From NCBI GenBank assembly GCA_050250375.1, contig JBFWOS010000001.1, forward strand, positions 544,351-608,350: a stretch of 64,000 bases of DNA. The letters are read 5' to 3'. The position numbers and the translations under genes were made by a program. This DNA is from Candidatus Omnitrophota bacterium (lineage in GTDB: Bacteria; Omnitrophota; Gorgyraeia; Zapsychrales; Zapsychraceae). The first letter of the stretch is position 1. Every line of letters begins with the position of its first letter. The notes under the pieces are model-generated. The model had not been told where the DNA came from. It searched no databases and saw only the letters and a list, made by a program, of their open reading frames with translations. Positions 3,769 through 64,000 of this stretch are shown here, in pieces.

Positions 3769-4236
3769 TTACTCCTTTTCCGAATTCTTTCTTGCACGGC
3801 TGATTTCTACATATTTAATCTGAAGTTCATAAATGGATGCATCCAGAAGGTTTTCTTCTTTATCATCCAGGTTTCCTTTGGTTTTTTCACGGATCATCAC
3901 CAACGTATCAATTAAGAACTTAGCCTGGCCAATATTTTCTTCCTTTTGATTAGTCACGGGATGGGGAATTTCACCCAAAAATATCAATGCCTGAAACCCA
4001 AGACTTGTTACATAGTTCAAGAAATTAATTTCAATCGATCCGTAATCCCCATCAGACTGGTCGTTTTTGAATCCCTCCAGATTATCTTCCTCCCGTTCAT
4101 CTTGTAAAGAATTAAGCGGCTCTTTGACATATATCTTGGATTTTTGTTTGCCCGGAATTTCTTTGGGATTCTGTTGTTCTTTGTCCCTGAACGCCGCTTC
4201 TTTCCAGGATTCATCAACAAATTTATCATCTTCCAT
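3769..4236 (-). CDS. DUF1844-like hypothetical protein
   Basis: ORF track gives 3769..4308. Trimmed to internal ATG at 4234-4236 (MEDDKF...), which has AGAAGAGG RBS upstream. FxNYV.SL..QAL..LG motif typical of DUF1844. Confidence 0.5.
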
Positions 4237-4355
4237 AGTAACCTCTTCTTTCAAGCGTGAGATCCATGCTAAACTAAAATGTTTGAATGAGTAGCCATAG
4301 AATATCATTTTGCCCAGCCAATGTCAAACAGATGATCCCCGACGATAAGGAAAAA

Positions 4356-5063
4356 TTACGGGTTAAGCTCTTCACCGTTACCTCTAAAGGTGATAACAAC
4401 ATTAAATGTCAACTGTGGATAAGGCAGATCTTTGGGAAACGGGGGAAACGGGGCAGAATCTTTTATGCTCCGTAACCCGATTGAACGTAAATATTCATTC
4501 GCGGATGTTTTTTCTTCAATAATCTTGATCGCATCAATCTCTCCCTTAGAATTAACAACAAACGTCAAATAAATATAACCCTCCTCAAAATCTTCCAGAT
4601 CAAAATAACTAAACGCCTTACTCCGGATTCTCTGCCAAAGAGTTTGATTGTAACTAATATATTTTGGATTGGTTATTTTTTCTGACCTGATTAAATCAAC
4701 CGACATTTTTCGCTCAGAATCGAATGTTTTGAGATCAGGTGTCATTTTTCGGTCCAGCGAAACCTTTTTAGAAAACTTTGAGATATCCTTAACCTCTTTA
4801 TCAAAGACAGAAAATTTTTCATTGGTTTTCTTGATCAGCTTAACATCCTTCGGCAACGGCCGTTCTTTTATAGCCTTTGATTCTTTCTCAACAATCGGTT
4901 TTTGTTTTTCAACCTTGACAGACGCCACCTTCTGATAAGTCACCTCAATTTGGTTTACCTTTTTGGGAGGGTCTATGATCCGTTTAGAAGCCAACGATTT
5001 TATGACAGAGAAATGAATGAAGCAGGAAATTATAAAACAACAATAAAATAGTTTATTCTGCAT
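4356..5063 (-). CDS. TonB C-terminal-domain protein (energy-transducer-like, N-terminal membrane anchor)
   Basis: 235 aa; N-terminal hydrophobic segment, K/E-rich linker, TonB-C-like C-terminus (YIYLTFVVNSKGEIDAIKIIE...APFPPFP...LTFNVVITF). Confidence 0.6.
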   Translation of the reverse strand: MQNKLFYCCFIISCFIHFSVIKSLASKRIIDPPKKVNQIEVTYQKVASVKVEKQKPIVEKESKAIKERPLPKDVKLIKKTNEKFSVFDKEVKDISKFSKKVSLDRKMTPDLKTFDSERKMSVDLIRSEKITNPKYISYNQTLWQRIRSKAFSYFDLEDFEEGYIYLTFVVNSKGEIDAIKIIEEKTSANEYLRSIGLRSIKDSAPFPPFPKDLPYPQLTFNVVITFRGNGEELNP

Positions 5064-51812: not shown

Positions 51813-53171
51813 TTATTTTGAAGCTATATCAGGAGTAATAATATGAGGTGTAATAAATATGACTAAATCTGTTTTTGTGACACTGGACTCAGTTTTTGTA
51901 AATACCAACCCTAAAATTGGGACATCCCCTAGAATAGGCGTCTTTTTCTTTGTTTCAGTCGTCTGATCTGTAATAAGACCGGCGATGACCAACGTATCCC
52001 CGTCCTTGACCATTACCCGTGTTTTCGTTGATTCATTACTCAACCGCGGCAAGGTCGTGTTCTCAACGGTAACAAAATCAAGAATCGCCGTAATCTTTGG
52101 CAAGACATCCAATGTTATATATCCTGCATTATTCACATGCGGGGTAACATCAAATATGATACCAATATCTTTGTATTCCCAACCGGATACCTGAAGTCTA
52201 GCCTGCTCTTCATTATAAGTGTACGTAGGAATTGGATATTGGCTTCCCACCACAATTTGAGCGGCTTGATTGTCCAAGGTCACAATTCTCGGATTCTGTA
52301 ATATATCAGTATCGCTGCGAGATTTCAAGAGTTCAAATACAGCTTGAACTTGGCTGAAATTTAACGTCCCATATGTGAATTCTGTGTTAGCATTACCTTC
52401 CGTTGTGTCTGGGCCAGGATATGGATCGGTGGCAAATCGGCTTGCTGATCCATTGCTGTCAAACGGCCAGGTAATCGGTCTTTGTGAACCCGATGCCGTG
52501 GCTTGTGTTAACCAATCAACACCCAAATTCTCCGTATCTGTGAAGTTTGTCTCCACAATTTTCGCCTCTATCAACACCTGTGGTGTTGTCCGATCAAGCT
52601 CTTTAATGACTCCAGACATTAATTCAATCTGTTGCGGGGTATCTGTAATAATAATAGTATTAGTCCGTTCATCAAAATTGATACTTCCGCGGTCAGATTT
52701 CATTTTTTCAATGGATTCAATAATTTCAGAAGCTCTACCGAAGTTTAATATATGGGTTTTTGTTTCCAAAGGAATCTGCTCAGACAGGACCATCTGATCT
52801 TCCCTTCGCTGTTTTAGATTTTCGACAGTCGTAACAACAACAATATTCCCTTTTTGTTCGTATGCATACCCATACGTTTGAACAATTACATCCAACGCCT
52901 GTTTCCAGGGCACTTCGTTCAATTGGATCGTTACCACCCCCTGAACTTCCGGGCTGGCTACGATGTTGACCCCGCTTTTGAATGACAGGATCTTAAAAAC
53001 ATTGCGGATATCAGCATCACGAAAATCGAAGCTCACATTTCCGCTTTCTGACATGGAAACAGAATCTGCTGCAATATTCTGCGTCTTACCATCCACACTC
53101 TTGGTTTGTGCGTACCCAATAGTGGTCAGAAACAGGACGGCCGCCACGGTTAATGTTAATTTTCTGAACAT
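51813..53171 (-). CDS. pilQ: Type IV pilus secretin PilQ
   Basis: 452 aa; signal peptide; N-terminal secretin_N-like domains; C-terminal secretin motif LVIAGLI...TPILGDVPILGLVF. Confidence 0.9.
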   Translation of the reverse strand: MFRKLTLTVAAVLFLTTIGYAQTKSVDGKTQNIAADSVSMSESGNVSFDFRDADIRNVFKILSFKSGVNIVASPEVQGVVTIQLNEVPWKQALDVIVQTYGYAYEQKGNIVVVTTVENLKQRREDQMVLSEQIPLETKTHILNFGRASEIIESIEKMKSDRGSINFDERTNTIIITDTPQQIELMSGVIKELDRTTPQVLIEAKIVETNFTDTENLGVDWLTQATASGSQRPITWPFDSNGSASRFATDPYPGPDTTEGNANTEFTYGTLNFSQVQAVFELLKSRSDTDILQNPRIVTLDNQAAQIVVGSQYPIPTYTYNEEQARLQVSGWEYKDIGIIFDVTPHVNNAGYITLDVLPKITAILDFVTVENTTLPRLSNESTKTRVMVKDGDTLVIAGLITDQTTETKKKTPILGDVPILGLVFTKTESSVTKTDLVIFITPHIITPDIASK

Positions 53172-53172
53172 T

Positions 53173-53577
53173 TTATTCCTCCTTTTTAAGCTTTAGCTTG
53201 AATACCTGCTGGTCTTTTTGTAATAATACCCAATCATCCGTAATTTCCGTTATGATAAATTGGCCTATTTTGTCATCTACTTTGACGATCTTTCCGTTTA
53301 TCATCGCAATATTCCCGGCCGCTCCGGACATAATTCCCTGCAATGACAAATCTGAAACCATTAAATCTGCTTCATAATTATTGATGGTTCCGCTTGAACT
53401 GATGAGTTTCCAGAATGGATCCCTCCGTCCGTTATCGTTATATTTATACTCTGCGGACTCTTCAGCCGCATCAGAGATAACACACGCGCCCAATATGCTT
53501 ACGATTAATACAGCCGCCAATTTGTGTTGAATCTTGATTCGATGCATATTAATTCGCCTTTTCATAAACAATGGCAC
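53173..53577 (-). CDS. pilP: Pilus assembly lipoprotein PilP
   Basis: Lipobox LGAC; conserved RDPF motif; start may be a later ATG. Confidence 0.7.
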   Translation of the reverse strand: MPLFMKRRINMHRIKIQHKLAAVLIVSILGACVISDAAEESAEYKYNDNGRRDPFWKLISSSGTINNYEADLMVSDLSLQGIMSGAAGNIAMINGKIVKVDDKIGQFIITEITDDWVLLQKDQQVFKLKLKKEE

Positions 53578-54148
53578 CCAATGTTAATTTAATCGAATGT
53601 TCTTTCGTATTAGTGGATGATGCAATTGTCAACTTCGTCACTTTCAAAAAGATCTCTCCACGTTCAATAACGTCGATGAACCGTCCCAGATTGTGGTAAC
53701 CTGCCCTGGCCTCAATCTCAATCGGAAGCGCGTAATAAACCCTGTCATTATTCTCGAGTACGATTTCCGAATCAATAACGTTTGGCATAATTTGATTTAT
53801 CTTCACTCCATTGTCGTTTGCCAACCTGGATACATGCTCAAGAATTAATGGCACTTCTTCTCTAGGCTCAACCTTTTCGTTTTCCTTTTTAATAACGCCT
53901 TCAAGACGAGCAACCTCCTTCTGATATTGATCCAATTTCATTATTTCTCCCTTAGCTTTATCAATATCAACGGCTAATATCTTTAATTCAGGATTAATTT
54001 TCGTTAACGTGGCCAATTGCGGACGCATGAGAACAAAATAATCCAGAAGAAACACCAGCAACAACACTCCACCGAAAATATAATACAGCGTCTTGTCATC
54101 CAGTTTCTCAAATTTTTCGTTAAACTTTTCTTTTAAATCATTTTTCAT
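53549..54148 (-). CDS. pilO: Pilus assembly protein PilO
   Basis: Start trimmed to MKNDLKEK...; single TM then coiled-coil and PilO fold. Confidence 0.75.
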   Translation of the reverse strand: MKNDLKEKFNEKFEKLDDKTLYYIFGGVLLLVFLLDYFVLMRPQLATLTKINPELKILAVDIDKAKGEIMKLDQYQKEVARLEGVIKKENEKVEPREEVPLILEHVSRLANDNGVKINQIMPNVIDSEIVLENNDRVYYALPIEIEARAGYHNLGRFIDVIERGEIFLKVTKLTIASSTNTKEHSIKLTLGAIVYEKAN

Positions 54149-54743
54149 TTTTAATCTTACCCTTGATCTTTGTCGTAATAAGAAAATCCGCCACATCCAT
54201 TTTATTCTCTGTCCGACGCTGGATAGAACCCAACTCCAATTCCGTCAGGTGCTCAAGAAATTGGGGTTGTTTCTTTAAATTAGATGTAAGTTTATGAACA
54301 TTGATCAGTTCGTCTTGATGATTGGAAATGGCGCTGCCTTCGATAAACAACATTTCTTCTGTCAAAGCAATTTTAGTCAACCACACCCCTCTAGGCAAAT
54401 CATCACTAATAATATTAAGCTTCGGGGCCCAGAGAATGACTTTTCCGCCTGTAACTTCGGTGAGGGCTTTGCTTTTACTATTTATTGCACGCATATCGTT
54501 AACGATTTTATCCACTTGTTGTTTCTTGGGTAAAATTAACGCCCATTCCTGTTTCAATTCTTTATGTTTATTTAATTTCGAAATATTTGTCACCAGTAAT
54601 ACAATATGAACAATAATCAACAACGCAAACAACCCTCCGCACGAACCGATTACGACTTCAATGGGCATATCTATTCCACCGGGAAGAAATTTCTTCTTCT
54701 TTCTTCTCCTCAATTCAGGTGAGATTAAGTTAATTTCGATCAT
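54138..54743 (-). CDS. pilN: Pilus assembly protein PilN
   Basis: Begins MIEINLISPELRR, a PilN INLLP-type motif; single TM. Confidence 0.8.
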   Translation of the reverse strand: MIEINLISPELRRRKKKKFLPGGIDMPIEVVIGSCGGLFALLIIVHIVLLVTNISKLNKHKELKQEWALILPKKQQVDKIVNDMRAINSKSKALTEVTGGKVILWAPKLNIISDDLPRGVWLTKIALTEEMLFIEGSAISNHQDELINVHKLTSNLKKQPQFLEHLTELELGSIQRRTENKMDVADFLITTKIKGKIKNEK

Positions 54744-55782
54744 ATTGATAAAGTGCCAAACCTAAGGCGACACCAAGCCTGTTGGATTTCTTATTCAGCT
54801 CTTCTTTTGAAACTTTTTCCGAAACTACCACCATTTCAAACGGATTCCAGCGTTTGATTTCTATGTCCAGCTGTTTGGCAATGCTGTCTTCCAAACCGAT
54901 CATCATGGCTGCCCCGCCGGTCAAAATCAATTCGGATATTTCGTTACTATTCTCTGTCGAGAAATAATCCAACGACAACCTCAGCTCTTGAATCAAATTT
55001 GAAATAGCCGATTCGCACGCGTTCTGAATTTCCTTGAGGCGTTCCCCCGGATTACATTTAAGTTGTTCGGCTTCCTCATAGTCAACCGCCAATGCGTTGG
55101 CTATCCTTTTAGTCAAATCACGTCCTCCGACATAAATGTCTCGATTAAATTGTGGAGTTTGCCCGACCATCACTGTAAGGTTGCTGACAGAGTCTCCCAT
55201 ATCCAATATGGCAACAACTTTACCGTCCGACGATGAATCCAAGACGCTCCTGGCATTGGCTATAGCGATCGGATTTATTCCAATAAAATCCGTTTCAAAA
55301 CCCAGTCCGGTGATCATTTTCAAACGCATCTCAACCAATTCTTTTTTTGCGGCCGCTGCCATAACTTTCATCTGCTTTGACTTGCCCAGGGGATCCAAGA
55401 TATAACAATCCGTATAAATCTGATCTTGTGTAAAAGGAAAATATTTGTCCGCTTCAATCGAGAATGAATTTCTTAAATCATCAAGAGACATGCGCGGCAT
55501 ATCTATAAAACGGATCAAGGTTCCCTTACCGTACACGGAGGTATAAATATTCTCAACCGGCATGCTCACCTGATTTAAAATTGTCTTCACAGTGGTTGTG
55601 TAATCCCCACCAACAATGGGTTGAACCGCCCAATTAAGGATTTTATAAGAATCCCCTTCTCGGTAAACTTCAACCATTTTGCAGGAATTAATTCCTATAT
55701 CTAATCCGACTGAGGAACCCTCTTTTTTCTTAGGAATAAAACGTTTGATAAATTTGAAATAATTTTGTAATAATTTGTTCAT
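54730..55782 (-). CDS. pilM: Pilus assembly protein PilM (actin-like ATPase fold)
   Basis: 350 aa; GLDIGINSCKMVEV start typical of PilM/FtsA-like. Confidence 0.85.
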   Translation of the reverse strand: MNKLLQNYFKFIKRFIPKKKEGSSVGLDIGINSCKMVEVYREGDSYKILNWAVQPIVGGDYTTTVKTILNQVSMPVENIYTSVYGKGTLIRFIDMPRMSLDDLRNSFSIEADKYFPFTQDQIYTDCYILDPLGKSKQMKVMAAAAKKELVEMRLKMITGLGFETDFIGINPIAIANARSVLDSSSDGKVVAILDMGDSVSNLTVMVGQTPQFNRDIYVGGRDLTKRIANALAVDYEEAEQLKCNPGERLKEIQNACESAISNLIQELRLSLDYFSTENSNEISELILTGGAAMMIGLEDSIAKQLDIEIKRWNPFEMVVVSEKVSKEELNKKSNRLGVALGLALYQYDRN

Positions 55783-55919: not shown

Positions 55920-56243
55920 CTATTGTACTAAATTAACATCATCAAGAGGAATTTCATAAATTATTTTTTGCCGTTTTTTCTTGGGCGTTGCGCTCAATTC
56001 ATTATCCGGTTCGGACATCAATTCGCTGGTATCCAAGAAAGTTGACTGGTCATTGGTTTGGGAACTGGTACGTAGCGCGTTATTCAAACGCATTTTCTGG
56101 GTTGTAGGATTGGCTGGCGTAGTGATCTTCTTTGTCTCTTCAATCTCGTATGATACCCAACTATTGGCCATGAATATTGCACATAATATGACGACTACAA
56201 CGATCAAAAGAGTATTTGACATATTGTTAGTTCTTGCGGCCAT
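55920..56243 (-). CDS. Small single-TM hypothetical protein, translationally coupled (TAATG) to the PilX-N protein
   Basis: 107 aa; N-terminal TM LLIVVVVILCAIFMA, then polar unstructured region. Confidence 0.45.
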   Translation of the reverse strand: MAARTNNMSNTLLIVVVVILCAIFMANSWVSYEIEETKKITTPANPTTQKMRLNNALRTSSQTNDQSTFLDTSELMSEPDNELSATPKKKRQKIIYEIPLDDVNLVQ

Positions 56244-57946
56244 TATGAATCTCCTTCTTGCCAGATCATTTTGTCGGTGATGTCATTGGTGAAGGCAATA
56301 AAAGTATTTAACGATGGAAAATATGGCGGGGCATTTCCCACAGCCATTCGTTCATCATACACAAAATTACGTCCGTATCCTGCTGTTTGTGTGCCCGTTG
56401 CACCATTAAACTGGCCGAAAGCCCCATAAAAGTCAGAAATGACACCTCCCAGCAATGTTGCTACTCCGCGCCCGCCCACTCCCGAGTCATTATAATTATC
56501 GACCTGGAATATACCGGCCTTAGCAAGAATCGTTCCGTGAACATTTACATCATTCGGCGCCGAAGTGCCGATACGCACGTTTCCGTTCCAGGAAACCAAC
56601 CCTAACAGGTTCCCCGCGTTCGAAGGAACACTGGGAGCAACATAACCGGCTTGTCCCGGCGTACCTACGGCAGAATTATAATTTTGATACTGAAGATGAT
56701 TGCTGATAACAATATCGTTGTTACTGGATATCGTTACAGCGGTATCACCATGAACTGTACCGCTCAAATTATTGATATCCCCGTTTACATAAATAACGGT
56801 CCCAACCCCATCCACTCCGTCCGGAACCCCGCCATATACAGTCGTTCCGACACTGACATGTTCGACCGTTGTCTGATTGGTTGACCTGTTGACTGTAATT
56901 ATTTTCTGGGAACCTCCCTGAACAATATTGTATACGGCATTATTGCTCCCGTCGACGGATAAGGTGACATTGCTGTTTCCTTCAACGTAGATGCCTCCGG
57001 TTAGACTCGTCCCATTATTGGAAATATAAATTCCGTTCCCCGAGATACTGGCACTTCCCAGCGCCTGGTCAACAAGATCCTGTTGTTGACTGGCTGATGA
57101 TAAAGAAATCGCACTTGCGCTTCGGTTAAATCCCGAATTAAACGTCGGGACATCTATACTTCCGTTGGATGCGGCATCCAGAAGAATCGGGGAACCACCG
57201 TTATAAAAACGAGCCAGTTGCTCCACCTGATCAACTCTTCCGTCAAAAATACCGCTGGGATTTAACGCGATATTGTACCTTCCGTTGGTATGCAGCGGCC
57301 CGGCAAAATTCGTCTTATCGGTAAACCAGACGTTGGTTCCGTTAGGCAAAGTTTGTTGATTGGTAAAAAGGGCATATTTGGCAAAATTATCCCGTTGGAC
57401 TCGCACAGTAAAGTCTCCCGACAAAACAACATCTTTATTTGTACCTTGGGATGTTCCGGTCGAAACAATCCGATAGTTATAAGGGAAATCCCAGGAATCT
57501 GCCGTGACTATTATCGGATTCGTTTTTTCGGAAATTGAAACATCATATTGATAAGTCCCGTTGCCTAAAGCTGAGGATTGTATGTATCTGGCATTTATCC
57601 CATTTAATGTTAAGGCCGGCACCCCTCCGTTCTTGACATAATTGATCAAGAAACCGATTCCATCGTTATTGGCGACATAGGTTGTCGTCTGAGCAACCAG
57701 GGTTGATGGATTCGTTGCGTTAACTGTATTAAGCATATAACTATTGATTAATGTATCCAACCCGTCTAAAGCGGCCTTCGATCCACCTTCAGCGATATAA
57801 AATGACTTAGCCAAATCCAATTCTCTTTGAGCAACCCTGCTTTCATAAATTGTCCGAAGAATAAAGACACTACTCAATCCCAACAGAACGACAACAACAA
57901 ACAACGCAATGATAAGTGCCACCCCTCTTTCATTATTTATTTTCAT
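56243..57946 (-). CDS. PilX N-terminal domain protein with long N/G/S/T-rich beta-helix-like region (putative pilus tip/adhesin)
   Basis: 567 aa; N-terminus MKINNERGVALIIALFVVVVLLGL resembles PilX_N; repetitive xGxNxVxS segments. Confidence 0.6.
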   Translation of the reverse strand: MKINNERGVALIIALFVVVVLLGLSSVFILRTIYESRVAQRELDLAKSFYIAEGGSKAALDGLDTLINSYMLNTVNATNPSTLVAQTTTYVANNDGIGFLINYVKNGGVPALTLNGINARYIQSSALGNGTYQYDVSISEKTNPIIVTADSWDFPYNYRIVSTGTSQGTNKDVVLSGDFTVRVQRDNFAKYALFTNQQTLPNGTNVWFTDKTNFAGPLHTNGRYNIALNPSGIFDGRVDQVEQLARFYNGGSPILLDAASNGSIDVPTFNSGFNRSASAISLSSASQQQDLVDQALGSASISGNGIYISNNGTSLTGGIYVEGNSNVTLSVDGSNNAVYNIVQGGSQKIITVNRSTNQTTVEHVSVGTTVYGGVPDGVDGVGTVIYVNGDINNLSGTVHGDTAVTISSNNDIVISNHLQYQNYNSAVGTPGQAGYVAPSVPSNAGNLLGLVSWNGNVRIGTSAPNDVNVHGTILAKAGIFQVDNYNDSGVGGRGVATLLGGVISDFYGAFGQFNGATGTQTAGYGRNFVYDERMAVGNAPPYFPSLNTFIAFTNDITDKMIWQEGDS

Positions 57947-57951
57947 CGGAT

Positions 57952-58632
57952 TTACCCCCTATTCCTTAGATACACAACCATACTATTCGTCATTGTCATA
58001 GTTCTATTCTTCATCGAAGTTCCCAACGCGGTTACTGTGATTGTCACCTCATTCTGGTCCACACTCATAGCCGCCTGAAAATCGGAAATCTTTTGAGCGA
58101 ATATATCCGTCCGCACCAGGGCATTCGCCGCGTTGCGGACCCGCCGCTCGAGTTGATTATTATTATTTATGGCATATTCAAGGTAACTGTATTCCACTGT
58201 CGAGCAATCATCATCGGCATCCATACAGGTTGAATCCGTGCACCCCCAAGTCAATGGAGCTCCCCAATTCGCCACATCCCCATTGTTATCAATAATTGTT
58301 TGTCCTGCTTCACAAATAACCGGCATAAAAAATTGAATTACATCCGAACTATTAACCCCGGCATTATCATTAATTGTCACCTGCATCACTCCTGCGCCGT
58401 TAGACCCCGACTCTCTCAACTCTTTAGAAATTTTTTCCAGCGTTAACCTTAAATTTTCCTGCAACTCAATCTGTAAGGCGGTGTTGGCCCAGCTGTTTTG
58501 ACCTGCTGCCATAGACATATACACTCCACCCATCATGGCTGTAAGGATCGCAACCGCAACCATAAGCTCCACAAGGCTGAATCCCCTGTTGACTTTAATC
58601 TTCAAATTTATTAATTTTTTATTATTGGTCAT
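57952..58632 (-). CDS. Type IV minor pilin (prepilin-type N-terminal cleavage/methylation domain)
   Basis: 226 aa; NRG|FSLVELMVAVAIL class III signal, E at +5. Confidence 0.8.
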   Translation of the reverse strand: MTNNKKLINLKIKVNRGFSLVELMVAVAILTAMMGGVYMSMAAGQNSWANTALQIELQENLRLTLEKISKELRESGSNGAGVMQVTINDNAGVNSSDVIQFFMPVICEAGQTIIDNNGDVANWGAPLTWGCTDSTCMDADDDCSTVEYSYLEYAINNNNQLERRVRNAANALVRTDIFAQKISDFQAAMSVDQNEVTITVTALGTSMKNRTMTMTNSMVVYLRNRG

Positions 58633-59074
58633 ATCTATAAGTCACCAACTGAACAGTTGAGTCGATTATGCCGTTGCCATTTGTATCCTCGCCGGCATCA
58701 AGACTGCCATCCAAATCGGTGTCTTCTCCAATAAGCAATCCATTTTTCTGTCTCCAACAAAACGAAACAGTTATCTGGACAAGATCAGGGTTTGTATTAT
58801 TAACATAAGAAACACCGGCACCGTTAATAGCCGGTTCAAAAAAGGAAACATTGTTGAAATTCGCCATCAATTGAGTAAAATCTGAATTACTGATTTGTTC
58901 CATACGGGTTTTCGCGGCTCTAGTAGCCATTGATTTGTTCCGGGACATTTCATTCAACTCCAGACATTTTGTGTAGGTTACCAATATACCAACGAAGGCG
59001 AGTATCATGACAACGGCCGCTACCATTACTTCTGCCAAAGCAAATCCCTCATTTCCTTTAAGTTTCAATTTCAT
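58622..59074 (-). CDS. Type IV minor pilin with EF-hand-like Ca-binding loops
   Basis: 150 aa; NEG|FALAEVMVAAVV; DTDLDGSLDAGE and DTNGNGIIDS loops. Confidence 0.8.
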   Translation of the reverse strand: MKLKLKGNEGFALAEVMVAAVVMILAFVGILVTYTKCLELNEMSRNKSMATRAAKTRMEQISNSDFTQLMANFNNVSFFEPAINGAGVSYVNNTNPDLVQITVSFCWRQKNGLLIGEDTDLDGSLDAGEDTNGNGIIDSTVQLVTYRYDQ

Positions 59075-59167: not shown

Positions 59168-59566
59168 CTATGGTGTTAAAATACCGCCTGTTGTGACAGT
59201 AAAAACAGTCGTACCTGAAGTACCTAGTGATACAGGCGTAGCTGTAAAGGAATATGACCCAGCTCCCCATGCGCAACCGAAGGTAAATCCGCTACGAGCA
59301 ACACCATCACAATAATCTTCCTGTAAATACGCCGGGACGGCTCCAGTTAAAGAAGACATGTCCAATGGATAATTTCCATTGTTGGCAGTCGCGAATGTTT
59401 CTGATGACGTTGACATTGTACGTAATGTACTTTGTGCCAAGGCATCGTTAGCTGAGATTTTGGCTCTCAGCAAATTCGGAATCGCGATAGCGGCCAGCAG
59501 AGCGATGATCGCGACAACGATCATAATTTCTACCAGCGTAAAACCTTTATTGTTTATCCTTTTCAT
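59168..59566 (-). CDS. pilA: Type IVa major pilin
   Basis: 132 aa; MKRINNKG|FTLVEIMIVVAIIALLAAIAIPNLLRAKISAN; AAGGAGG RBS. Confidence 0.9.
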   Translation of the reverse strand: MKRINNKGFTLVEIMIVVAIIALLAAIAIPNLLRAKISANDALAQSTLRTMSTSSETFATANNGNYPLDMSSLTGAVPAYLQEDYCDGVARSGFTFGCAWGAGSYSFTATPVSLGTSGTTVFTVTTGGILTP

Positions 59567-59968: not shown

Positions 59969-60919
59969 CTACTGCCCCTGAGCCGATTGATCCAGCTTCT
60001 TAATATCTTCTTGGGTCCTATTAAACTTTTCTTTAAGAATACGGTTTTCTTTTTCAATAAAATATAAGTTTTCCATCAATCGTTCTATTTCCTCTTCACT
60101 GATGTCGAAGGCGGCATTTTTTTCTTTAATTTTATGATCGGCCTGGCGTAACACTTTTTCTAATGTATTTCCTTCTGTTCGCAACTCCGAGATCTCCGCA
60201 TGAATCTCATCTAATAATTTGGAATTTCGGCTCTCAAAGCTGTCTAAGTCGCCCAATACTTCTTTTTCGCCAGCTTCAGCCTTCTTATAATGATCATCCA
60301 GCAAGGCCAATTTCTGTTTCAACAAATTATTCTTTTCTTTTAGACTCTCATATCTTTCAAAAGACTTAGCATGATCTTTCTCAAAACCCTGGCTCCTGCG
60401 CTCCAACTCCTTAACGTTCGTCTGAAGAAGGTCTAATTTTCTTTCTAACGATTCATTCTCCGTTGCATGAAAAATGCTCCTCGATTCCTGATCAATTAAT
60501 TGATTCATATGCTGAATTTCATCGGTAACTATGGCTATTTCCTTTAATAACTTTTCCTCATGTTGCGATTTTGCGGGGGTCCTGCTTTTTAAGCTAAGTC
60601 CACCAGCACCCTCAACCCTTAACGGGGCTTCTTCTTTCGCCCGCAATGATGTTTGACCTTCAACCGATTTTGTTCCACGCCCATGTCCGTCTATTTGTTT
60701 TTGCAGTGAATCAATTTTCATCTCCAGAATCTTTATTTCCGAAAGGAGCCATCGATTTCTTTCGGTCATTTCTTTTGAACTCTGCTTTAGCCCGTTCAGA
60801 CTAATGGATACGGATTCCTGTGAAGATACATGCCAGTCCGTTTGGCCCAAAACTGTTTTAGGGACAATGCTGACACCTGCCAGAAAAAAAACAACCACTT
60901 TTGGTTTAATTCTCAACAT
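59969..60919 (-). CDS. Secreted coiled-coil protein of unknown function within the pilus locus
   Basis: 316 aa; signal peptide; long heptad-rich E/K/L/Q region; start 2 nt after pilC stop. Confidence 0.6.
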   Translation of the reverse strand: MLRIKPKVVVFFLAGVSIVPKTVLGQTDWHVSSQESVSISLNGLKQSSKEMTERNRWLLSEIKILEMKIDSLQKQIDGHGRGTKSVEGQTSLRAKEEAPLRVEGAGGLSLKSRTPAKSQHEEKLLKEIAIVTDEIQHMNQLIDQESRSIFHATENESLERKLDLLQTNVKELERRSQGFEKDHAKSFERYESLKEKNNLLKQKLALLDDHYKKAEAGEKEVLGDLDSFESRNSKLLDEIHAEISELRTEGNTLEKVLRQADHKIKEKNAAFDISEEEIERLMENLYFIEKENRILKEKFNRTQEDIKKLDQSAQGQ

Positions 60920-60923
60920 GCGA

Positions 60924-62132
60924 TTAAATAATCTGCGTTATGTTCATGATTGGCATGAAAAGGGCAATGACGATAAAACCAATAACAATACCCAGAACAC
61001 CTATAATAAGCGGCTCGATTATGCTGGTCAACCCTTCCACAGCCGCATCTACCTGGTCATCATAGAACTCGGATATTTTAAGTAACATTTTCTCCAACTG
61101 ACCGGATTTTTCACCGATCGCGATCATCCGCGTAACCATCGGCGGAAAGACTTTACTCTTGCTTAATGGCGGGGCAATACTTTCCCCTCCGCGCACATTA
61201 TTCTTGACCTCATCAACGACGAGTTCAAGCACCCTGTTCCCAATCGTCTTACCGACAATATCCAAAGATTCAAGGATCGGAACACCGCTTTGAATTAATG
61301 TCGCCAAAGTGCGGCTAAACCGGCTGATCGCAACCTTACGCAGCAAGTCTCCAAATATCGGCAGCTTTAACACAGCACCATCAATGACCACCGCGCCTTT
61401 GTTTGTTTTATGCCATTGCTGCAACGTGACAACCAATATAAAGAGTGCCCCCACAATCCATAATAAATATTTCTGCAAACCTTCACTGATCGCCATTAAA
61501 AGCTGGGTCATGGGAGGAAGTTCAGAATTCAGAGATGCATAAATTCCGGCAAAGGTTGGAACTACCTTAACAAGCAACAAAATGGTTATAAGGACAGCCA
61601 TGGTTACAACGACCGCCGGATAAATCAAAGCAGCCTTAACCTTGCGCCTTAATTTAAGTGTCTTTTCCATGTAGAACGAGACACGGTCAAGCACCTGCGC
61701 CAAAACACCACCGGTTTCCCCGACTCTGACCATATTAACGAATAACGTATCAAAAACCTGCGGATGCTTCGAGAACGATACAGACAAGCTGCTTCCATGC
61801 GAGATATCTTCAGCAATATTACCCAATACTTTTTTAAACATTGGATGAGTCACTTGTTCTTGTAATGCATCCAGCCCCTGAACGATTGGGATGCCGGCAT
61901 CAACCATAGTTGCTAACTGGCGGGAAAATATTACGATTTCATCAGGCTTAACCTTCTTACTCGTAAAAGAACTTTTTTTCTTACTAACCGTATCTTTGAT
62001 TTCATTAATAGATATAATGACAAGTTTTCGTTTGCGCAACTCCTCAATCACGGCAACTTTATTATCCGCTGCAATCTTGCCGGTTACGCTTTTTGATTCC
62101 TGATTTTTTGCTACATATTTGAAGGTGGCCAT
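60924..62132 (-). CDS. pilC: Type IV pilus platform protein PilC (GspF family)
   Basis: 402 aa; two T2SSF repeats, three TMs. Confidence 0.9.
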   Translation of the reverse strand: MATFKYVAKNQESKSVTGKIAADNKVAVIEELRKRKLVIISINEIKDTVSKKKSSFTSKKVKPDEIVIFSRQLATMVDAGIPIVQGLDALQEQVTHPMFKKVLGNIAEDISHGSSLSVSFSKHPQVFDTLFVNMVRVGETGGVLAQVLDRVSFYMEKTLKLRRKVKAALIYPAVVVTMAVLITILLLVKVVPTFAGIYASLNSELPPMTQLLMAISEGLQKYLLWIVGALFILVVTLQQWHKTNKGAVVIDGAVLKLPIFGDLLRKVAISRFSRTLATLIQSGVPILESLDIVGKTIGNRVLELVVDEVKNNVRGGESIAPPLSKSKVFPPMVTRMIAIGEKSGQLEKMLLKISEFYDDQVDAAVEGLTSIIEPLIIGVLGIVIGFIVIALFMPIMNITQII

Positions 62133-62371: not shown

Positions 62372-64000
62372 TTAATCACTCGCCGTTATACGCAGGACTT
62401 CGTCAAGCGTCGTTTGTCCGTTTAAACACTTATCCATGGCATCCTCAAACAAGGTGCGCATTTCCTTGTTCTTTCTTGCGAATTCCTTGATAACATCGGA
62501 AGATTCGCCCTTAAGAAGAAGATTGCGGACATCATCATCAACTTCCAACAGCTCTGTGATTCCCATTCTTCCCTGATAGCCCAGGCGGCGGCATTTGTCA
62601 CACCCCTTACCACTATAAAATTTTGTATCGGCCTTAACCGGGTATTTCAGGTCATCCAACAAAGCCTTTGGAAGAGCGATTTCCTCGCGGCAAGATTGGC
62701 AAATTCTTCGGCACAGTCTTTGGGCGCTGATTAAGAAAATACTAGAGGCCACCAGAAAAGGCTCAACATCCATGTCAATCAGACGGGTCAAAGCACTTGC
62801 GGAATCATTCGTGTGTAAAGTAGAAAAAACCAACTGTCCGGTTAAAGAGGCTTTTATGGCGATATCCGCCGTTTCTCCATCACGAATTTCCCCCACCATG
62901 ACAACGTCGGGACTTTGACGTAAAATCGATCTCAATCCTTCGGCAAAAGTCAGCCCGATCTCAGGCCTCGCCTGAATTTGAGTTAACCCCTCGACTAAAT
63001 ACTCCACTGGATCCTCAACCGTAATGACATTTTTTTCCACCGTGTTTAATTTGCTGACCAATGAATACAACGTGGTTGATTTTCCGCTACCGGTCGGTCC
63101 TGTCACAAGCATCATCCCAAAGGGTTTTACGGTCGCCTCTTCCAATATTGTGAGCGCCTTATCATTAAATCCCAAGCCCGCCAACCCAACCGAAAGGCTT
63201 CCCTTATCCAGTATCCGCATAACAATCTTTTCCCCGAACGTTGTCGGAAGCATGGAGACCCGGAAATCGACTTCTTTGTTGGCAATCTTCAACTTAAAAC
63301 GTCCGTCTTGGGGCACATGACTTAATGTAATATCAAGACGCGCCATAATTTTGATTCTCACGATAACCGCATTTTGATTTTCTTTGGGGATTTCCAAAAT
63401 GTTGGTGAGAATCCCGTCTATCCGGTATCGAACCTTCATGCCGTTTGTCTTAGGCTCGATATGAATATCCGAGGCTCTTTGTTTGATGGCTTCTTTCACA
63501 ATCAGATTGACCATACGGATGATGGGGGCCTTCTCACTTTCATCCACGGAACTATCCAGGTCTTCCTCCCCATCACTTTCGGAAACAATCTCAAAATCTT
63601 CAACATCAATATCTTTACTAATCTCCGTGACACTATTTTCCGCTTTCAAACCATAGAAGCTATCAATGACTTTCAGTATTTCGTCATTTGTACTCATGAC
63701 GATCTCAATTTCTTTACCGGTTATATTTTTAAGGTCATCAATAATAAAAACATTTAGCGGGTCAGAAACCGCTATCGTCAATGTTTCATCCAGTAATGAC
63801 AACGGGATAATCTGGTACTGCCGTGCAATGCGTTCGGGAATGGTTTCCTGCAAAGCAGGATCAAACTTATATTTGGATAAATTAATAAACGGGATGTTCA
63901 ATTCGCGGACTAACAAGACCAGCAAATCTTTTTCCTTAATGAGCCCTTTCTCAACAATTGCTTTCTCTAAAGTAATGCCTTTACGTTTCTGAAAGACCAT
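62372..64000 (-). CDS. pilB: Type IV pilus assembly ATPase PilB (GspE family); N-terminus at or beyond window edge
   Basis: GSPII_E N-domain; Walker A GPTGSGKSTT; tetracysteine Zn motif; ATG occupies the last 3 nt of the window. Confidence 0.9.
   Translation of the reverse strand: MVFQKRKGITLEKAIVEKGLIKEKDLLVLLVRELNIPFINLSKYKFDPALQETIPERIARQYQIIPLSLLDETLTIAVSDPLNVFIIDDLKNITGKEIEIVMSTNDEILKVIDSFYGLKAENSVTEISKDIDVEDFEIVSESDGEEDLDSSVDESEKAPIIRMVNLIVKEAIKQRASDIHIEPKTNGMKVRYRIDGILTNILEIPKENQNAVIVRIKIMARLDITLSHVPQDGRFKLKIANKEVDFRVSMLPTTFGEKIVMRILDKGSLSVGLAGLGFNDKALTILEEATVKPFGMMLVTGPTGSGKSTTLYSLVSKLNTVEKNVITVEDPVEYLVEGLTQIQARPEIGLTFAEGLRSILRQSPDVVMVGEIRDGETADIAIKASLTGQLVFSTLHTNDSASALTRLIDMDVEPFLVASSIFLISAQRLCRRICQSCREEIALPKALLDDLKYPVKADTKFYSGKGCDKCRRLGYQGRMGITELLEVDDDVRNLLLKGESSDVIKEFARKNKEMRTLFEDAMDKCLNGQTTLDEVLRITASD

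Follow-up and report, generated by a model that had tools for sequence, protein, structure and literature searches.

Every type IV filament has its assembly primed by minor pilins of the I, J and K classes, which remain at the loaded tip. The window (the whole 64,000-nt stretch of Omnitrophota DNA analyzed here) encodes a type IV pilus cluster in which a 150-aa minor pilin, PilI, carries two adjacent 12-residue acidic loops shortly before its C-terminus. The question is whether these loops bind calcium and, if they do, what bound ions would be for. The first-pass annotation had described a canonical EF-hand loop followed by a degenerate copy, an arrangement considered unusual in so small a pilin, and had suggested that it could serve as the calcium sensor of a system without PilY1.

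The pilin and its gene cluster

Features of the locus are listed in Table 1. In the translated PilI reading frame, DTDLDGSLDAGE spans residues 118-129 and DTNGNGIIDSTV residues 130-141, in agreement with the earlier positions. The assignment as a minor pilin also holds, being supported by the prepilin residues G10, F11 and E15 and by a weak N_methyl match. The N-terminus, MKLKLKGNEG/FALAEVMVAAVV, has Gly-1, Glu+5 and a hydrophobic alpha1-N segment; G10 is kept in at least 90% of 42 homologues (alignment A1) and E15 is invariant among them. N-terminal matches to N_methyl, ComGE and gspI are all weak. TIGR01707 (gspI) gives 19.2 bits against a cut-off of 44.35 and TIGR02523 (PilV) 12.2 bits against 52.2, both below threshold and both confined to the N-terminal helix region. 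The GspI fold, alpha1 with a small three-stranded antiparallel sheet, is present, and genes of the J and K classes lie alongside. The 150-aa pilin is a distant structural member of the GspI/PilV class and not an equivalog.

Assignment of the 226-aa prepilin to the PilJ/GspJ class is presumed from its position and its weak matches. Secretin, Secretin_N and STN domains were found in 51813..53171, the names PilM, PilN and PilO were taken from syntenic homologues in related loci together with reading of the sequences, and PilC and PilB have syntenic homologues in loci L001, L003 and L032. The I-J-K gene order is kept in most related loci. In the cluster proteins and large window ORFs that were scanned, nothing like PilY1 was detected. 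Systems with a ComZ/GspK-like tip pilin manage without PilY1 by other means (PMC13533445), and as such a pilin is encoded here, the absence of PilY1 has another explanation than a substitute calcium sensor.

Table 1. Features of the pilus locus, in window coordinates. Residue numbers are those of PilI.
Feature	Coordinates	Strand	Basis
PilM, PilN, PilO, small protein in PilP position, secretin PilQ	51813..55782	-	ORF list; synteny
567-aa ComZ/GspK-like tip pilin: N-terminal pilin-like domain and beta-solenoid (DUF4900)	56243..57946	-	
226-aa prepilin, presumed PilJ/GspJ-class partner, 11-nt overlap with PilI gene	57952..58632	-	N_methyl E 1e-7; weak GspH/GspJ N-terminal matches
PilI gene, GspI/PilV-class minor pilin bearing the loops, 150 aa	58622..59074	-	
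Beta-strand 3, residues 141-148, C-terminal, leaving the module	58631..58654	-	DSSP on model
Loop 2, DTNGNGIIDSTV, residues 130-141, Dx[DN]x[DN]G-type, ending in conserved D-S-[PT]-[VA] into strand 3	58652..58687	-	Sequence, conservation
Loop 1, DTDLDGSLDAGE, residues 118-129, Dx[DN]x[DN]G-type, with Asp-9 and Glu-12	58688..58723	-	Sequence, conservation, model
G116-E117, invariant Gly-Glu just ahead of loop 1	58724..58729	-	A1 alignment
Beta-strand 2, residues 98-108, including C106-W107, entering the module	58751..58783	-	DSSP on model
Class III prepilin leader and cleavage motif MKLKLKGNEG/FALAE (Gly-1, Phe+1, Glu+5)	59030..59074	-	Sequence
132-aa candidate major pilin, directly upstream of PilI	59168..59566	-	N_methyl E 8e-9; PilA, GspG, ComGC N-terminal matches
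PilC platform protein	60924..62132	-	Sequence reading (GspF-like repeats), synteny
PilB-type assembly ATPase, reaching window end	62372..64000	-	Sequence reading (Walker motifs), synteny

Sequence of the two loops

When all ORFs of 60 aa or more in the six frames of the window are considered, the expression Dx[DN]x[DN]G matches only at these two adjacent sites. From composition, ∼2e-8 such tandems would be expected per window proteome, and chance origin is excluded. At EF-type ligand positions 1, 3, 5, 9 and 12, the sequence of loop 1 reads D, D, D, D and E, with Gly-6 and Leu-8, and it does fit the simplified string D-x-D-x-D-G-x-L-D-x-x-E to which it had first been compared; at the same positions loop 2 reads D, N, N, D and V. 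DTDLDG of loop 1 is a strict Dx[DN]xDG motif followed by D126 and E129, and DTNGNG of loop 2 is a relaxed form with Asn at position 5, followed by D138. The linear motif with a further acid downstream, which characterizes the class, is thus in place; according to its authors, the strict expression misses some proven sites (PMC3123361).

The 24-residue module contains eight acidic and no basic residues. Its loop-coding halves are 48% identical in DNA and 6/14 in protein, values that give no hint of a recent internal duplication, and that origin was rejected. An N-glycosylation sequon was likewise rejected, no N-x-S/T being present in the module.

Conservation across the family

In addition to the 42 homologues of A1, a wider survey covered 207 small family members, 151 of which have a canonical module with the exact 24-residue spacing. 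The module is the most conserved stretch of the PilI family. In A1, G116, E117, G123, D130 and S139 are invariant, ligand positions are near-invariant, and at least 90% of sequences have C106 and W107. Note that the pattern used to select the 151 modules fixed the equivalent of Gly116 as well as D1 and G6 of loop 1, and allowed E or D at 117 and at position 12. At positions of loop 1 not constrained in this way, D/N3 occurs in 100%, L4 in 86%, D/N5 in 100%, L8 in 88%, D9 in 81% and G11 in 92% of the 151 modules. Although the pattern permitted Asp at both sites, position 12 is Glu in all 151 and the residue before loop 1 is Glu in 99%; the preceding Gly (100%) was fixed by the pattern. Loop 2 has N3 in 92%, N5 in 95%, G6 in 85%, I/L8 in 93%, D9 in 95% and S10 in 97%.

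The second loop therefore does not deserve to be called degenerate, its conservation being at least equal to that of loop 1. Its lack of Glu-12 is the usual end of the two-loop unit, both in 151 of the 207 members and in the giant repeat proteins considered below. Tandem loops are also the rule rather than an oddity within the PilI family, which comprises 176 cluster representatives at E≤1e-30. Judged from these alignments, both loops are under strong purifying selection. Positions 3 and 5 are Asn, not Asp, in most family members, which lowers the charge and may weaken the putative sites.

Departures from the canonical module occur in 56 of the 207 members, and a few (P0197, P0208) have no module. 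It is therefore dispensable for the fold, and the members without it mark it as an addition to the pilin fold. Where loop 1 has decayed, as in P0054, P0075, P0112, P0157 and P0189, the G-E pair is retained and Glu-12 is mostly lost.

EF-hand membership and predicted structure

Both loops were compared by regular expression with PROSITE PS00018, a 13-residue pattern whose text was taken from PMC5775757. Neither matches, an outcome that the first-pass annotation had itself named as grounds for giving up its assignment. Loop 1 fails because the pattern bars Leu at position 4 and calls for a hydrophobic residue at position 13, where loop 1 has Asp; loop 2 fails through Val at position 12. EF-hand families are absent at E≤1 from a Pfam scan of the full 150-aa protein, and the isolated module scores 7.4-10 bits against EF-hand_1, EF-hand_5 and EF-hand_6, whose cut-offs are 25-25.9. 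DUF7151 matches the isolated module weakly (E 0.0044-0.13, 12.7-17.4 bits versus a cut-off of 27.2). Thrombospondin type 3 and bacterial TSP3 repeats, which follow DxDxDGxxDxxD and have binuclear sites, are not a match either, since neither TSP_3 nor TSP3_bac was found in the full protein (E≤1), in the fragment (E≤10) or in the repeat-rich giant proteins.

The AlphaFold2 model (pLDDT 90.5) has a helix at residues 12-62 and none beyond residue 73, so a helix-loop-helix is not formed. By DSSP, residues 109-140 are coil (pLDDT ∼93) between strands at 98-108 and 141-148; confidence in the loops may partly mirror their conservation in the alignment. Taken together, the PS00018 mismatch, the sub-threshold Pfam scores and the absence of flanking helices in the model mean that the term “canonical EF-hand” has to be dropped. 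Because the conserved Leu-4 is excluded by PS00018, the conformation of loop 1 may differ from that of EF-hand-type loops.

The same loops in giant repeat proteins

In three giant proteins (P0076, P0095 and P0180), loops of the same kind occur mainly in pairs spaced by 12 residues, with Glu before almost every loop. The pair is therefore the unit. Pfam and NCBIfam models give only Beta_helix and a very weak CglD match in these proteins, neither of which covers the loops.

A proposed two-ion structural clasp

Given the Asp/Asn/Gly spacing and the strong purifying selection, the loops most likely function in binding Ca2+ or some other divalent cation. Our favored explanation, which we regard as somewhat better than an even bet, is that residues 116-141 form a two-Ca2+ structural clasp of the DxDxDG class that closes the beta2-beta3 hairpin on the side toward the tip, where it would stabilize PilI and the tip interface. 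It would be comparable to the calcium sites of PulG/GspG, GspK, the SdrG/SdrD B domains and BamM. The proposed module is self-contained and inserted in the hairpin, with the consensus G-E-[D-x-D/N-L-D/N-G-x-L-D-x-G-E]-[D-x-N-G-N-G-x-I/L-D-S-P/T-V]. Each loop would be shaped locally like that of an EF-hand, but outside a helix-loop-helix frame, and two Ca2+ would offset the eight acidic side chains within 24 residues, turning a floppy connection into a small rigid subdomain. Coordination in loop 1 would be completed by its own position-12 residue, E129. Loop 2, which has no acid at position 12, would be completed in trans by the invariant E117 on the strand leading in; the two ions would then pin that strand to the one leading out. 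The idea that E117 is a ligand of loop 2 is supported by the members with a decayed loop 1, because they keep G-E and mostly lose Glu-12. Within the priming (tip) complex, both PilI and the surface it shares with the ComZ-like tip pilin would thereby be mechanically stabilized, and folding would depend on calcium.

The sequence and its conservation, the class of fold, the coil conformation of the loops and the gene context are shown by the analysis; we infer metal binding, ion stoichiometry, the ligand role of E117 and the interface position, the last by analogy with other I-K pairs. In the GspI homologue XcpV, V122 and F124, near the C-terminus, touch alpha1 of XcpX (PMC6211770); we infer that these residues lie in the last strand and that the contact can be transferred to strand 3 of PilI. 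As the module runs into the C-terminal strand, which is the GspK-contact region in GspI homologues, its job is likely to be stabilization of folding or of the interface. A regulatory role is less likely than a structural one.

Alternative explanations

In a broader version of the clasp idea, (G/S/T)-E-D-x-N-x-N-G-x-L-D-x-G-E-D-x-N-G-N-G-x-L-D may be an uncurated, autonomous two-calcium unit that has been inserted repeatedly and that, at the pilus tip, would form a mechanical lock, dependent on calcium, between PilI and the ComZ-like adhesin. Either loop would be completed by the Glu preceding the other loop, and the two ions would cross-link strands. Independent insertions into hairpins would have occurred in a GspI-like pilin (Omnitrophota), a GspH-like pilin (a Hahellaceae genome) and a third pilin (Hydrogenedentota), and the unit would have been amplified to arrays of up to ∼40 loops in giant surface proteins. 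We put this forward tentatively, at about one chance in four, and if it is true, then tip-complex assembly, and with it piliation and host attachment of these ultra-small bacteria, would hinge on environmental calcium.

Adhesion is a different use of the same ions: a partly exposed Ca2+ at the pilus tip could engage a ligand carried by prey cells, host cells or minerals (acidic polysaccharide, sugar hydroxyls or phosphate), as in C-type lectins and some calcium-dependent bacterial adhesins. The tip complex includes GspI-class subunits (PMC13533445), attachment to host cells has been proposed for Omnitrophota type IVa pili (PMC10066038), and calcium is essential to the adhesion strength between SdrD and its ligand (PMC12407086). 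Giant, adhesin-like beta-helix surface proteins also contain the module in abundance. Selection for host range should, however, vary a receptor site, whereas even the non-ligand loop positions are conserved in very distant members, and the neighboring ComZ-like solenoid protein is the likelier adhesin. We therefore consider an adhesive site unlikely.

Slightly less probable again is that no metal is bound and that the loops are a rigid Gly-rich spacer of Asx turns, or a protein-protein interface, with Asp and Asn kept for hydrogen-bonded turns. Such a role would suit the prevalence of Asn over Asp at positions 3 and 5, the conserved Leu-4 that is atypical of EF-hand loops, and the confident AlphaFold2 fold of the region without an ion. 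AlphaFold2, though, often yields holo-like conformations, and eight acids with no bases in 24 positions would repel one another without counter-ions. The spacing of D1, [DN]3, [DN]5, G6, hydrophobic 8, D9 and E12 is that of proven calcium loops (PMC3123361), and a near-identical DTNGNGYLD is found in the engineered calcium-dependent antibody binder Z-Ca.

The reading proposed at the outset, an EF-hand calcium sensor that governs pilus extension and retraction in place of the PilY1 calcium site, has in its favor the EF-hand register of D1, D3, D5, G6, L8, D9 and E12 in loop 1, the DxDxDG-type PilY1 site that regulates Pseudomonas pilus dynamics (PMC3123361; bioRxiv 2026.02.23.707608) and the failure to detect a PilY1-like protein among the proteins scanned. 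We consider it very improbable, given the PROSITE and Pfam results, the helix-free strand-coil-strand model, the ComZ/GspK-like pilin that otherwise accounts for the absence of PilY1, and the dozens of copies of the same loop pair in giant surface proteins, for which a sensing role is implausible. Globular domains of pilins also face the periplasm or the exterior, where we take calcium to be an environmental quantity and not a controlled signal. Nothing points to sensing in preference to structural stabilization.

Implications

The loop pair is real and has not previously been described in GspI/PilV-class pilins in the literature searched; the metal-binding chemistry itself is already familiar. 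We regard the loops as probably a rigid staple of a pilus-tip protein. Calcium sites known so far are in the major pseudopilin, GspK and PilY1, and a conserved two-ion clasp in the GspI/PilV class, if confirmed, would add another point of calcium control over filament stability. EGTA and loop mutants would then provide a simple handle on the pili of Omnitrophota, a phylum still without isolates. The pair is a compact candidate for protein engineering and for a new HMM, the latter because no Pfam family covers the loops of the repeat-rich proteins.

Comparison with known systems

Canonical EF-hands (PS00018; PF00036, PF13202, PF13405) share with loop 1 the 12-residue register of positions 1, 3, 5, 9 and 12 together with Gly-6 and Leu-8. 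They differ in being helix-loop-helix structures whose loops stand two helices apart, whereas the PilI loops are contiguous and, in the model, strand-coil-strand.

The PilI loops also resemble the Dx[DN]xDG loops of Rigden and Galperin (PMC3123361), which bind Ca2+ in a near-identical manner in at least 12 non-EF-hand contexts, strand-loop-strand included; a DxDxDG-type loop grafted between two beta-strands of CD2 created a calcium site (PMC3123361). Shared features are Asp-1, Asp/Asn-3, Asp/Asn-5, Gly-6, a hydrophobic residue at 8, a further acid 2-6 residues downstream, the strand-loop-strand setting and an extracellular or periplasmic location. PilI differs in having two head-to-tail loops with 12-residue periodicity and a shared Glu, and in Asn-5 of loop 2 and Leu-4 of loop 1. 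That paper does not list a pilin beta2-beta3 hairpin among its contexts; the word “pilin” occurs 0 times in its text.

Sequence and profile searches of PDB chains with the module gave short matches (E 0.086-6.6) that are statistically insignificant and serve as illustration, not as evidence of homology. The nearest solved sequences are BamM DHDLDGVFDFEEDINGDG, the SdrD B domain EDTNKNGVQDLGE, Z-Ca GGDTNGNGYLD and calmodulin loops. The BamM and SdrD strings are near-identical to the module but short, set in unrelated folds and insignificant (E 0.09-1.5). In both cases calcium gives structure or mechanostability to regions of little secondary structure or to closing strands: the C-terminal domain of Flavobacterium BamM has no regular secondary structure and is partly structured by seven modeled Ca2+ (PMC12611786), and the B domains of SdrG and SdrD hold three Ca2+ each, with a mechanostability above 2 nN (PMC6232131).

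Among filament proteins, calcium stabilizes the subunit or the tip complex in PulG/GspG, GspK/XcpX and PilY1, which are of different subunit classes from PilI. PulG, which is disordered and degraded without calcium (PMC13081927), has a single site built from D117, D125 and backbone atoms, in contrast to two tandem loops. XcpX/GspK has two to three calcium sites (Kd ∼26 µM) formed by acidic clusters unlike the PilI loops. The DxDxDG-type loop of PilY1 sits in a beta-propeller blade, that of PilI in a pilin hairpin. In the literature searched, which included few subscription-journal papers, no calcium site was found for a GspI/PilV-class pilin.

The PilA2-ComZ pair of Thermus thermophilus (PDB 6qvf, 6qvi) likewise combines a small GspI-like pilin bearing an extra subdomain with an adjoining GspK-like solenoid pilin. 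That subdomain was modeled between the pilin and solenoid domains of ComZ (PMC6561018), in a paper whose text contains the word “calcium” 0 times. The ComZ solenoid is large and resembles the beta-solenoids of ice-binding proteins, and DNA binding is a feature shown for Thermus ComZ. With GspI, XcpV, EpsI and PilV as a group, the 150-aa pilin shares the Glu+5 leader and the J and K genes downstream, and to this common plan the PilI family adds, between strands 2 and 3, an acidic loop module of 24 residues.

Results

PilI is encoded in a type IVa-like cluster together with a PilB-type ATPase, PilC, a coiled-coil protein, a 132-aa pilin, PilM/N/O, a small protein at the PilP position and a secretin. 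The remaining window is housekeeping (RNA polymerase β and β′, EF-G, SecY and ribosomal protein S1), and none of the proteins scanned was recognizably PilY1-like. The gene order PilI-PilJ-PilK is kept in most of 36 full-length related loci, which derive from Omnitrophota MAGs, some labeled “uncultured Planctomycetales”. This conserved order makes PilI the “I” member of a priming/tip complex of the I-J-K type, as understood in PMC13533445.

Several other features of the cluster were recorded (see table). The PilJ-position prepilin carries a four-Cys cluster (CEAGQ...WGC..STC....DDDC), and an 11-nt overlap of its gene start with the PilI stop suggests translational coupling. The predicted coiled-coil protein, encoded between the genes for PilC and the major pilin, has an N-terminal hydrophobic segment, gives weak Pfam coiled-coil matches only, and is 34% identical in the closest related locus (L001). 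Some Omnitrophota genomes have two loop-bearing PilI copies (locus pairs L013/L021 and L028/L031), and each copy is followed by J/K-like genes of its own, which suggests multiple tip-complex sets per genome.

Positions of PilI, its loops and other features discussed in the text (window positions, except for the last row, which refers to related locus L043)
Feature	Position	Strand	Remarks
PilI ORF	58622..59074	-	150 residues
Loop 1, DTDLDGSLDAGE	58688-58723	-	residues 118-129
Loop 2, DTNGNGIIDSTV	58652-58687	-	residues 130-141
PilI C37	58964..58966	-	in α1
PilI C106	58757..58759	-	in strand 2
PilJ-position prepilin	57952..58632	-	226 residues
Predicted coiled-coil protein	59969..60919	-	316 residues
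Hahellaceae GspH-family minor pilin	3980..4690	+	MAG JACKOD010000002.1

The N-terminus of PilI (MKLKLKGNEG followed by FALAEVMVAAVV) is a class III (prepilin) leader with Gly-1, Phe+1 and Glu+5; in an alignment of 42 homologues, G10 is kept in at least 90% and E15 is invariant. This part alone is matched by Pfam N_methyl and by the NCBIfam models gspI, ComGE and PilV, always below their cut-offs. The AlphaFold2 model, built with the 42 homologues, has a mean pLDDT of 90.5 (92-93 across residues 111-140) and contains helices at 12-62 and 66-73 and strands at 76-78, 85-95, 98-108 and 141-148. Residues 109-140 are coil save for a two-residue bridge (114-115), and lead into the last strand. Two cysteines are conserved in the family, C37 (consensus YxxCxxL) and C106 (CWRQ, at least 90%), which suggests a helix-to-sheet disulfide, unlike the usual C-terminal pilin disulfide.

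Translation of the ORF and the conservation described below bear out the tandem loops reported in the first-pass annotation, with coordinates and residue numbers exact for both. Among six-frame ORFs of at least 60 aa, the window has exactly two matches to Dx[DN]x[DN]G; these are adjacent and are the PilI loops. Since the amino-acid composition of long ORFs predicts only ~2e-8 such tandems per window, chance is not the explanation.

The same annotation had described loop 1 as a canonical EF-hand, which the following comparisons do not support. PROSITE PS00018 (pattern text verified in PMC5775757), the scan by which the annotation would have this claim judged, is unmatched: in loop 1, position 4 is Leu although the pattern bars {ILVFYW} there, and position 13 is Asp instead of a hydrophobic residue; in loop 2, position 12 is Val instead of D or E. 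No EF-hand family was found in Pfam at E≤1 using the whole protein; using an isolated 34-residue segment, EF-hand_1, EF-hand_5 and EF-hand_6 scored 7.4-10 bits against cut-offs of 25-26. The AlphaFold2 model has no helix-loop-helix. Neither are the loops locked into β-strands, the arrangement named earlier as incompatible with calcium: they are modeled as coil, compatible with ion binding.

In 62 close homologues the C-terminal consensus is IGE-Dx[DN][LI][DN]GxL[DN]AGE-DxNGNGx[IL]DS[PT]V. Averaged along the full protein, column identity in the 42-sequence alignment is only 33%; G116, E117, G123, D130 and S139 are invariant in it, and conservation reaches at least 90% at D118, L125, G128, E129, N132, G133, N134, G135 and D138. 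A PilI profile search of 1.84 billion cluster representatives recovered 176 at E≤1e-30 and 1122 at E≤1e-10. The exact 24-residue spacing occurs in 151 of 207 small family members examined. The pattern selecting these 151 fixed the Gly before the loops and Asp-1 and Gly-6 of loop 1, with an acidic class at three more positions. Positions that it left free are also highly conserved: in loop 1, Leu at 4 (86%) and 8 (88%), Asp at 9 (81%) and Gly at 11 (92%); in loop 2, Asn at 3 (92%) and 5 (95%), Gly at 6 (85%), Ile/Leu at 8 (93%), Asp at 9 (95%) and Ser at 10 (97%). Where the pattern allowed E or D, Glu is found before loop 1 in 99% and at loop 1 position 12 in 100%. Loop 2, formerly called degenerate, is at least as constrained as loop 1, and its lack of an acid at position 12 is the normal end of a two-loop unit. 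The other 56 members depart from this spacing through indels or the decay of one loop, and a few (P0197, P0208) lack the module altogether, which indicates that the module is an addition to the GspI fold, not part of its core.

Positions 3 and 5 of loop 1 (D120 and D122) co-vary strongly in the 151 members, with N-N, D-D, N-D and D-N in 91, 47, 11 and 2, where independence, with kinship ignored, would give ~63, 19, 39 and 30. The window PilI is of the D-D type.

The PilI profile also recovered, outside the window, three giant surface proteins (P0076, P0095 and P0180; 1599-2565 aa, with right-handed β-helix regions), each having 34-42 such loops. Their loops (E-D-x-N-G-N-G-x-L-D) are mostly 12-spaced pairs with Glu before nearly every loop. 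No family in Pfam or NCBIfam covers these repeats; the proteins give hits to Beta_helix and, very weakly, CglD only. In a genome scan the module turned up in proteins from many phyla. The Hahellaceae GspH-family minor pilin (Pfam GspH, E 2e-16) has five consecutive tandem loops within its globular domain, in what looks like independent acquisition by another pilin class, and a Hydrogenedentota prepilin (L055) also has a loop pair. Together with the giant proteins, these pilins mark the loop pair, as judged from sequence, as a building block that is used repeatedly and was taken up by pilin folds on more than one occasion.

Discussion

Calcium binding by the PilI module is likely. Its spacing (Asp-1, Asp/Asn-3, Asp/Asn-5, Gly-6, hydrophobic 8, Asp-9, Glu-12) is that of the Dx[DN]xDG loop, which binds Ca2+ near-identically in at least 12 structural contexts besides EF-hands, strand-loop-strand included, and which sufficed for a calcium site when grafted between two CD2 β-strands (PMC3123361). 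G116-S139 contains eight acidic and zero basic residues; that so acidic a segment is confidently ordered in the model would be hard to reconcile with an absence of bound cations. Given spacing, charge density, calcium-binding lookalikes and the calcium known in type IV filaments, we propose that the module is a two-ion structural clasp on the β2-β3 hairpin. E129 would complete loop 1 as position 12, and we propose from the conservation pattern that E117, on the incoming strand, would complete loop 2, which has no acid at that position. Consistent with this, the Glu before loop 1 is ~99% conserved though no loop precedes it; where loop 1 is decayed and loop 2 intact (P0054, P0075, P0157, P0189), this Glu is kept and Glu-12 mostly lost; and in the giant proteins loops are paired, with Glu before each.

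A calcium-dependent adhesive site is plausible, given the position of PilI at the tip and a proposal that Omnitrophota attach to hosts by their type IVa pili (PMC10066038); against it stand the strong conservation of loop positions other than the ligands and the solenoid protein, which is the more obvious adhesin. The module could possibly be a metal-free Asx-turn spacer, a poor fit to both the charge density and the exact ligand register. A regulatory EF-hand sensor replacing PilY1, as first suggested, is disfavored and, like the canonical EF-hand, not supported: besides the failed EF-hand tests, the module is periplasmic or extracellular and recurs in giant repeat proteins, and the ComZ/GspK-like tip pilin also accounts for the missing PilY1, since in systems lacking PilC/PilY1 the K-class subunits supply the final strand themselves (PMC13533445).

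Neither the stabilization of pilins by calcium nor the DxDxDG loop is new in itself. A tandem two-loop module in the β2-β3 hairpin of a GspI/PilV-class pilin was not found in the literature searched, most subscription journals lying outside it, and the loop pair has no curated family.

In solved structures, the nearest strings (weak database matches, E 0.09-6.6) all come from calcium-binding regions. These include DHDLDGVFDFEEDINGDG of BamM, whose C-terminal domain lacks regular secondary structure and owes its order in part to seven ions assigned as calcium (PMC12611786); EDTNKNGVQDLGE of an SdrD B domain; GGDTNGNGYLD of Z-Ca, an engineered protein A domain whose binding to antibody depends on calcium; and calmodulin loops. 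SdrG/SdrD B domains hold three Ca2+ each, which raise the unfolding force to >2 nN, and EDTA lowers this force four-fold or unfolds the domain (PMC6232131). In type IV filaments calcium is already a known structural cofactor: without it PulG is disordered and degraded and the pilus dissociates (PMC13081927), and XcpX/GspK has two to three calcium sites with a Kd of about 26 µM (PMC6211770).

The module runs straight into the modeled C-terminal strand of PilI and, by analogy with two known systems, may lie in or close to the interface between PilI and PilK within the tip complex, which must resist tensile loads (PMC13533445). XcpV V122 and F124, near the C-terminus, contact XcpX α1 (PMC6211770). 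In Thermus, ComZ, a GspK-like pilin domain with an inserted β-solenoid, is argued to cap the competence pilus, and its partner PilA2, structurally a close GspI homologue, has a small additional subdomain that was modeled between the ComZ pilin and solenoid domains (PMC6561018).
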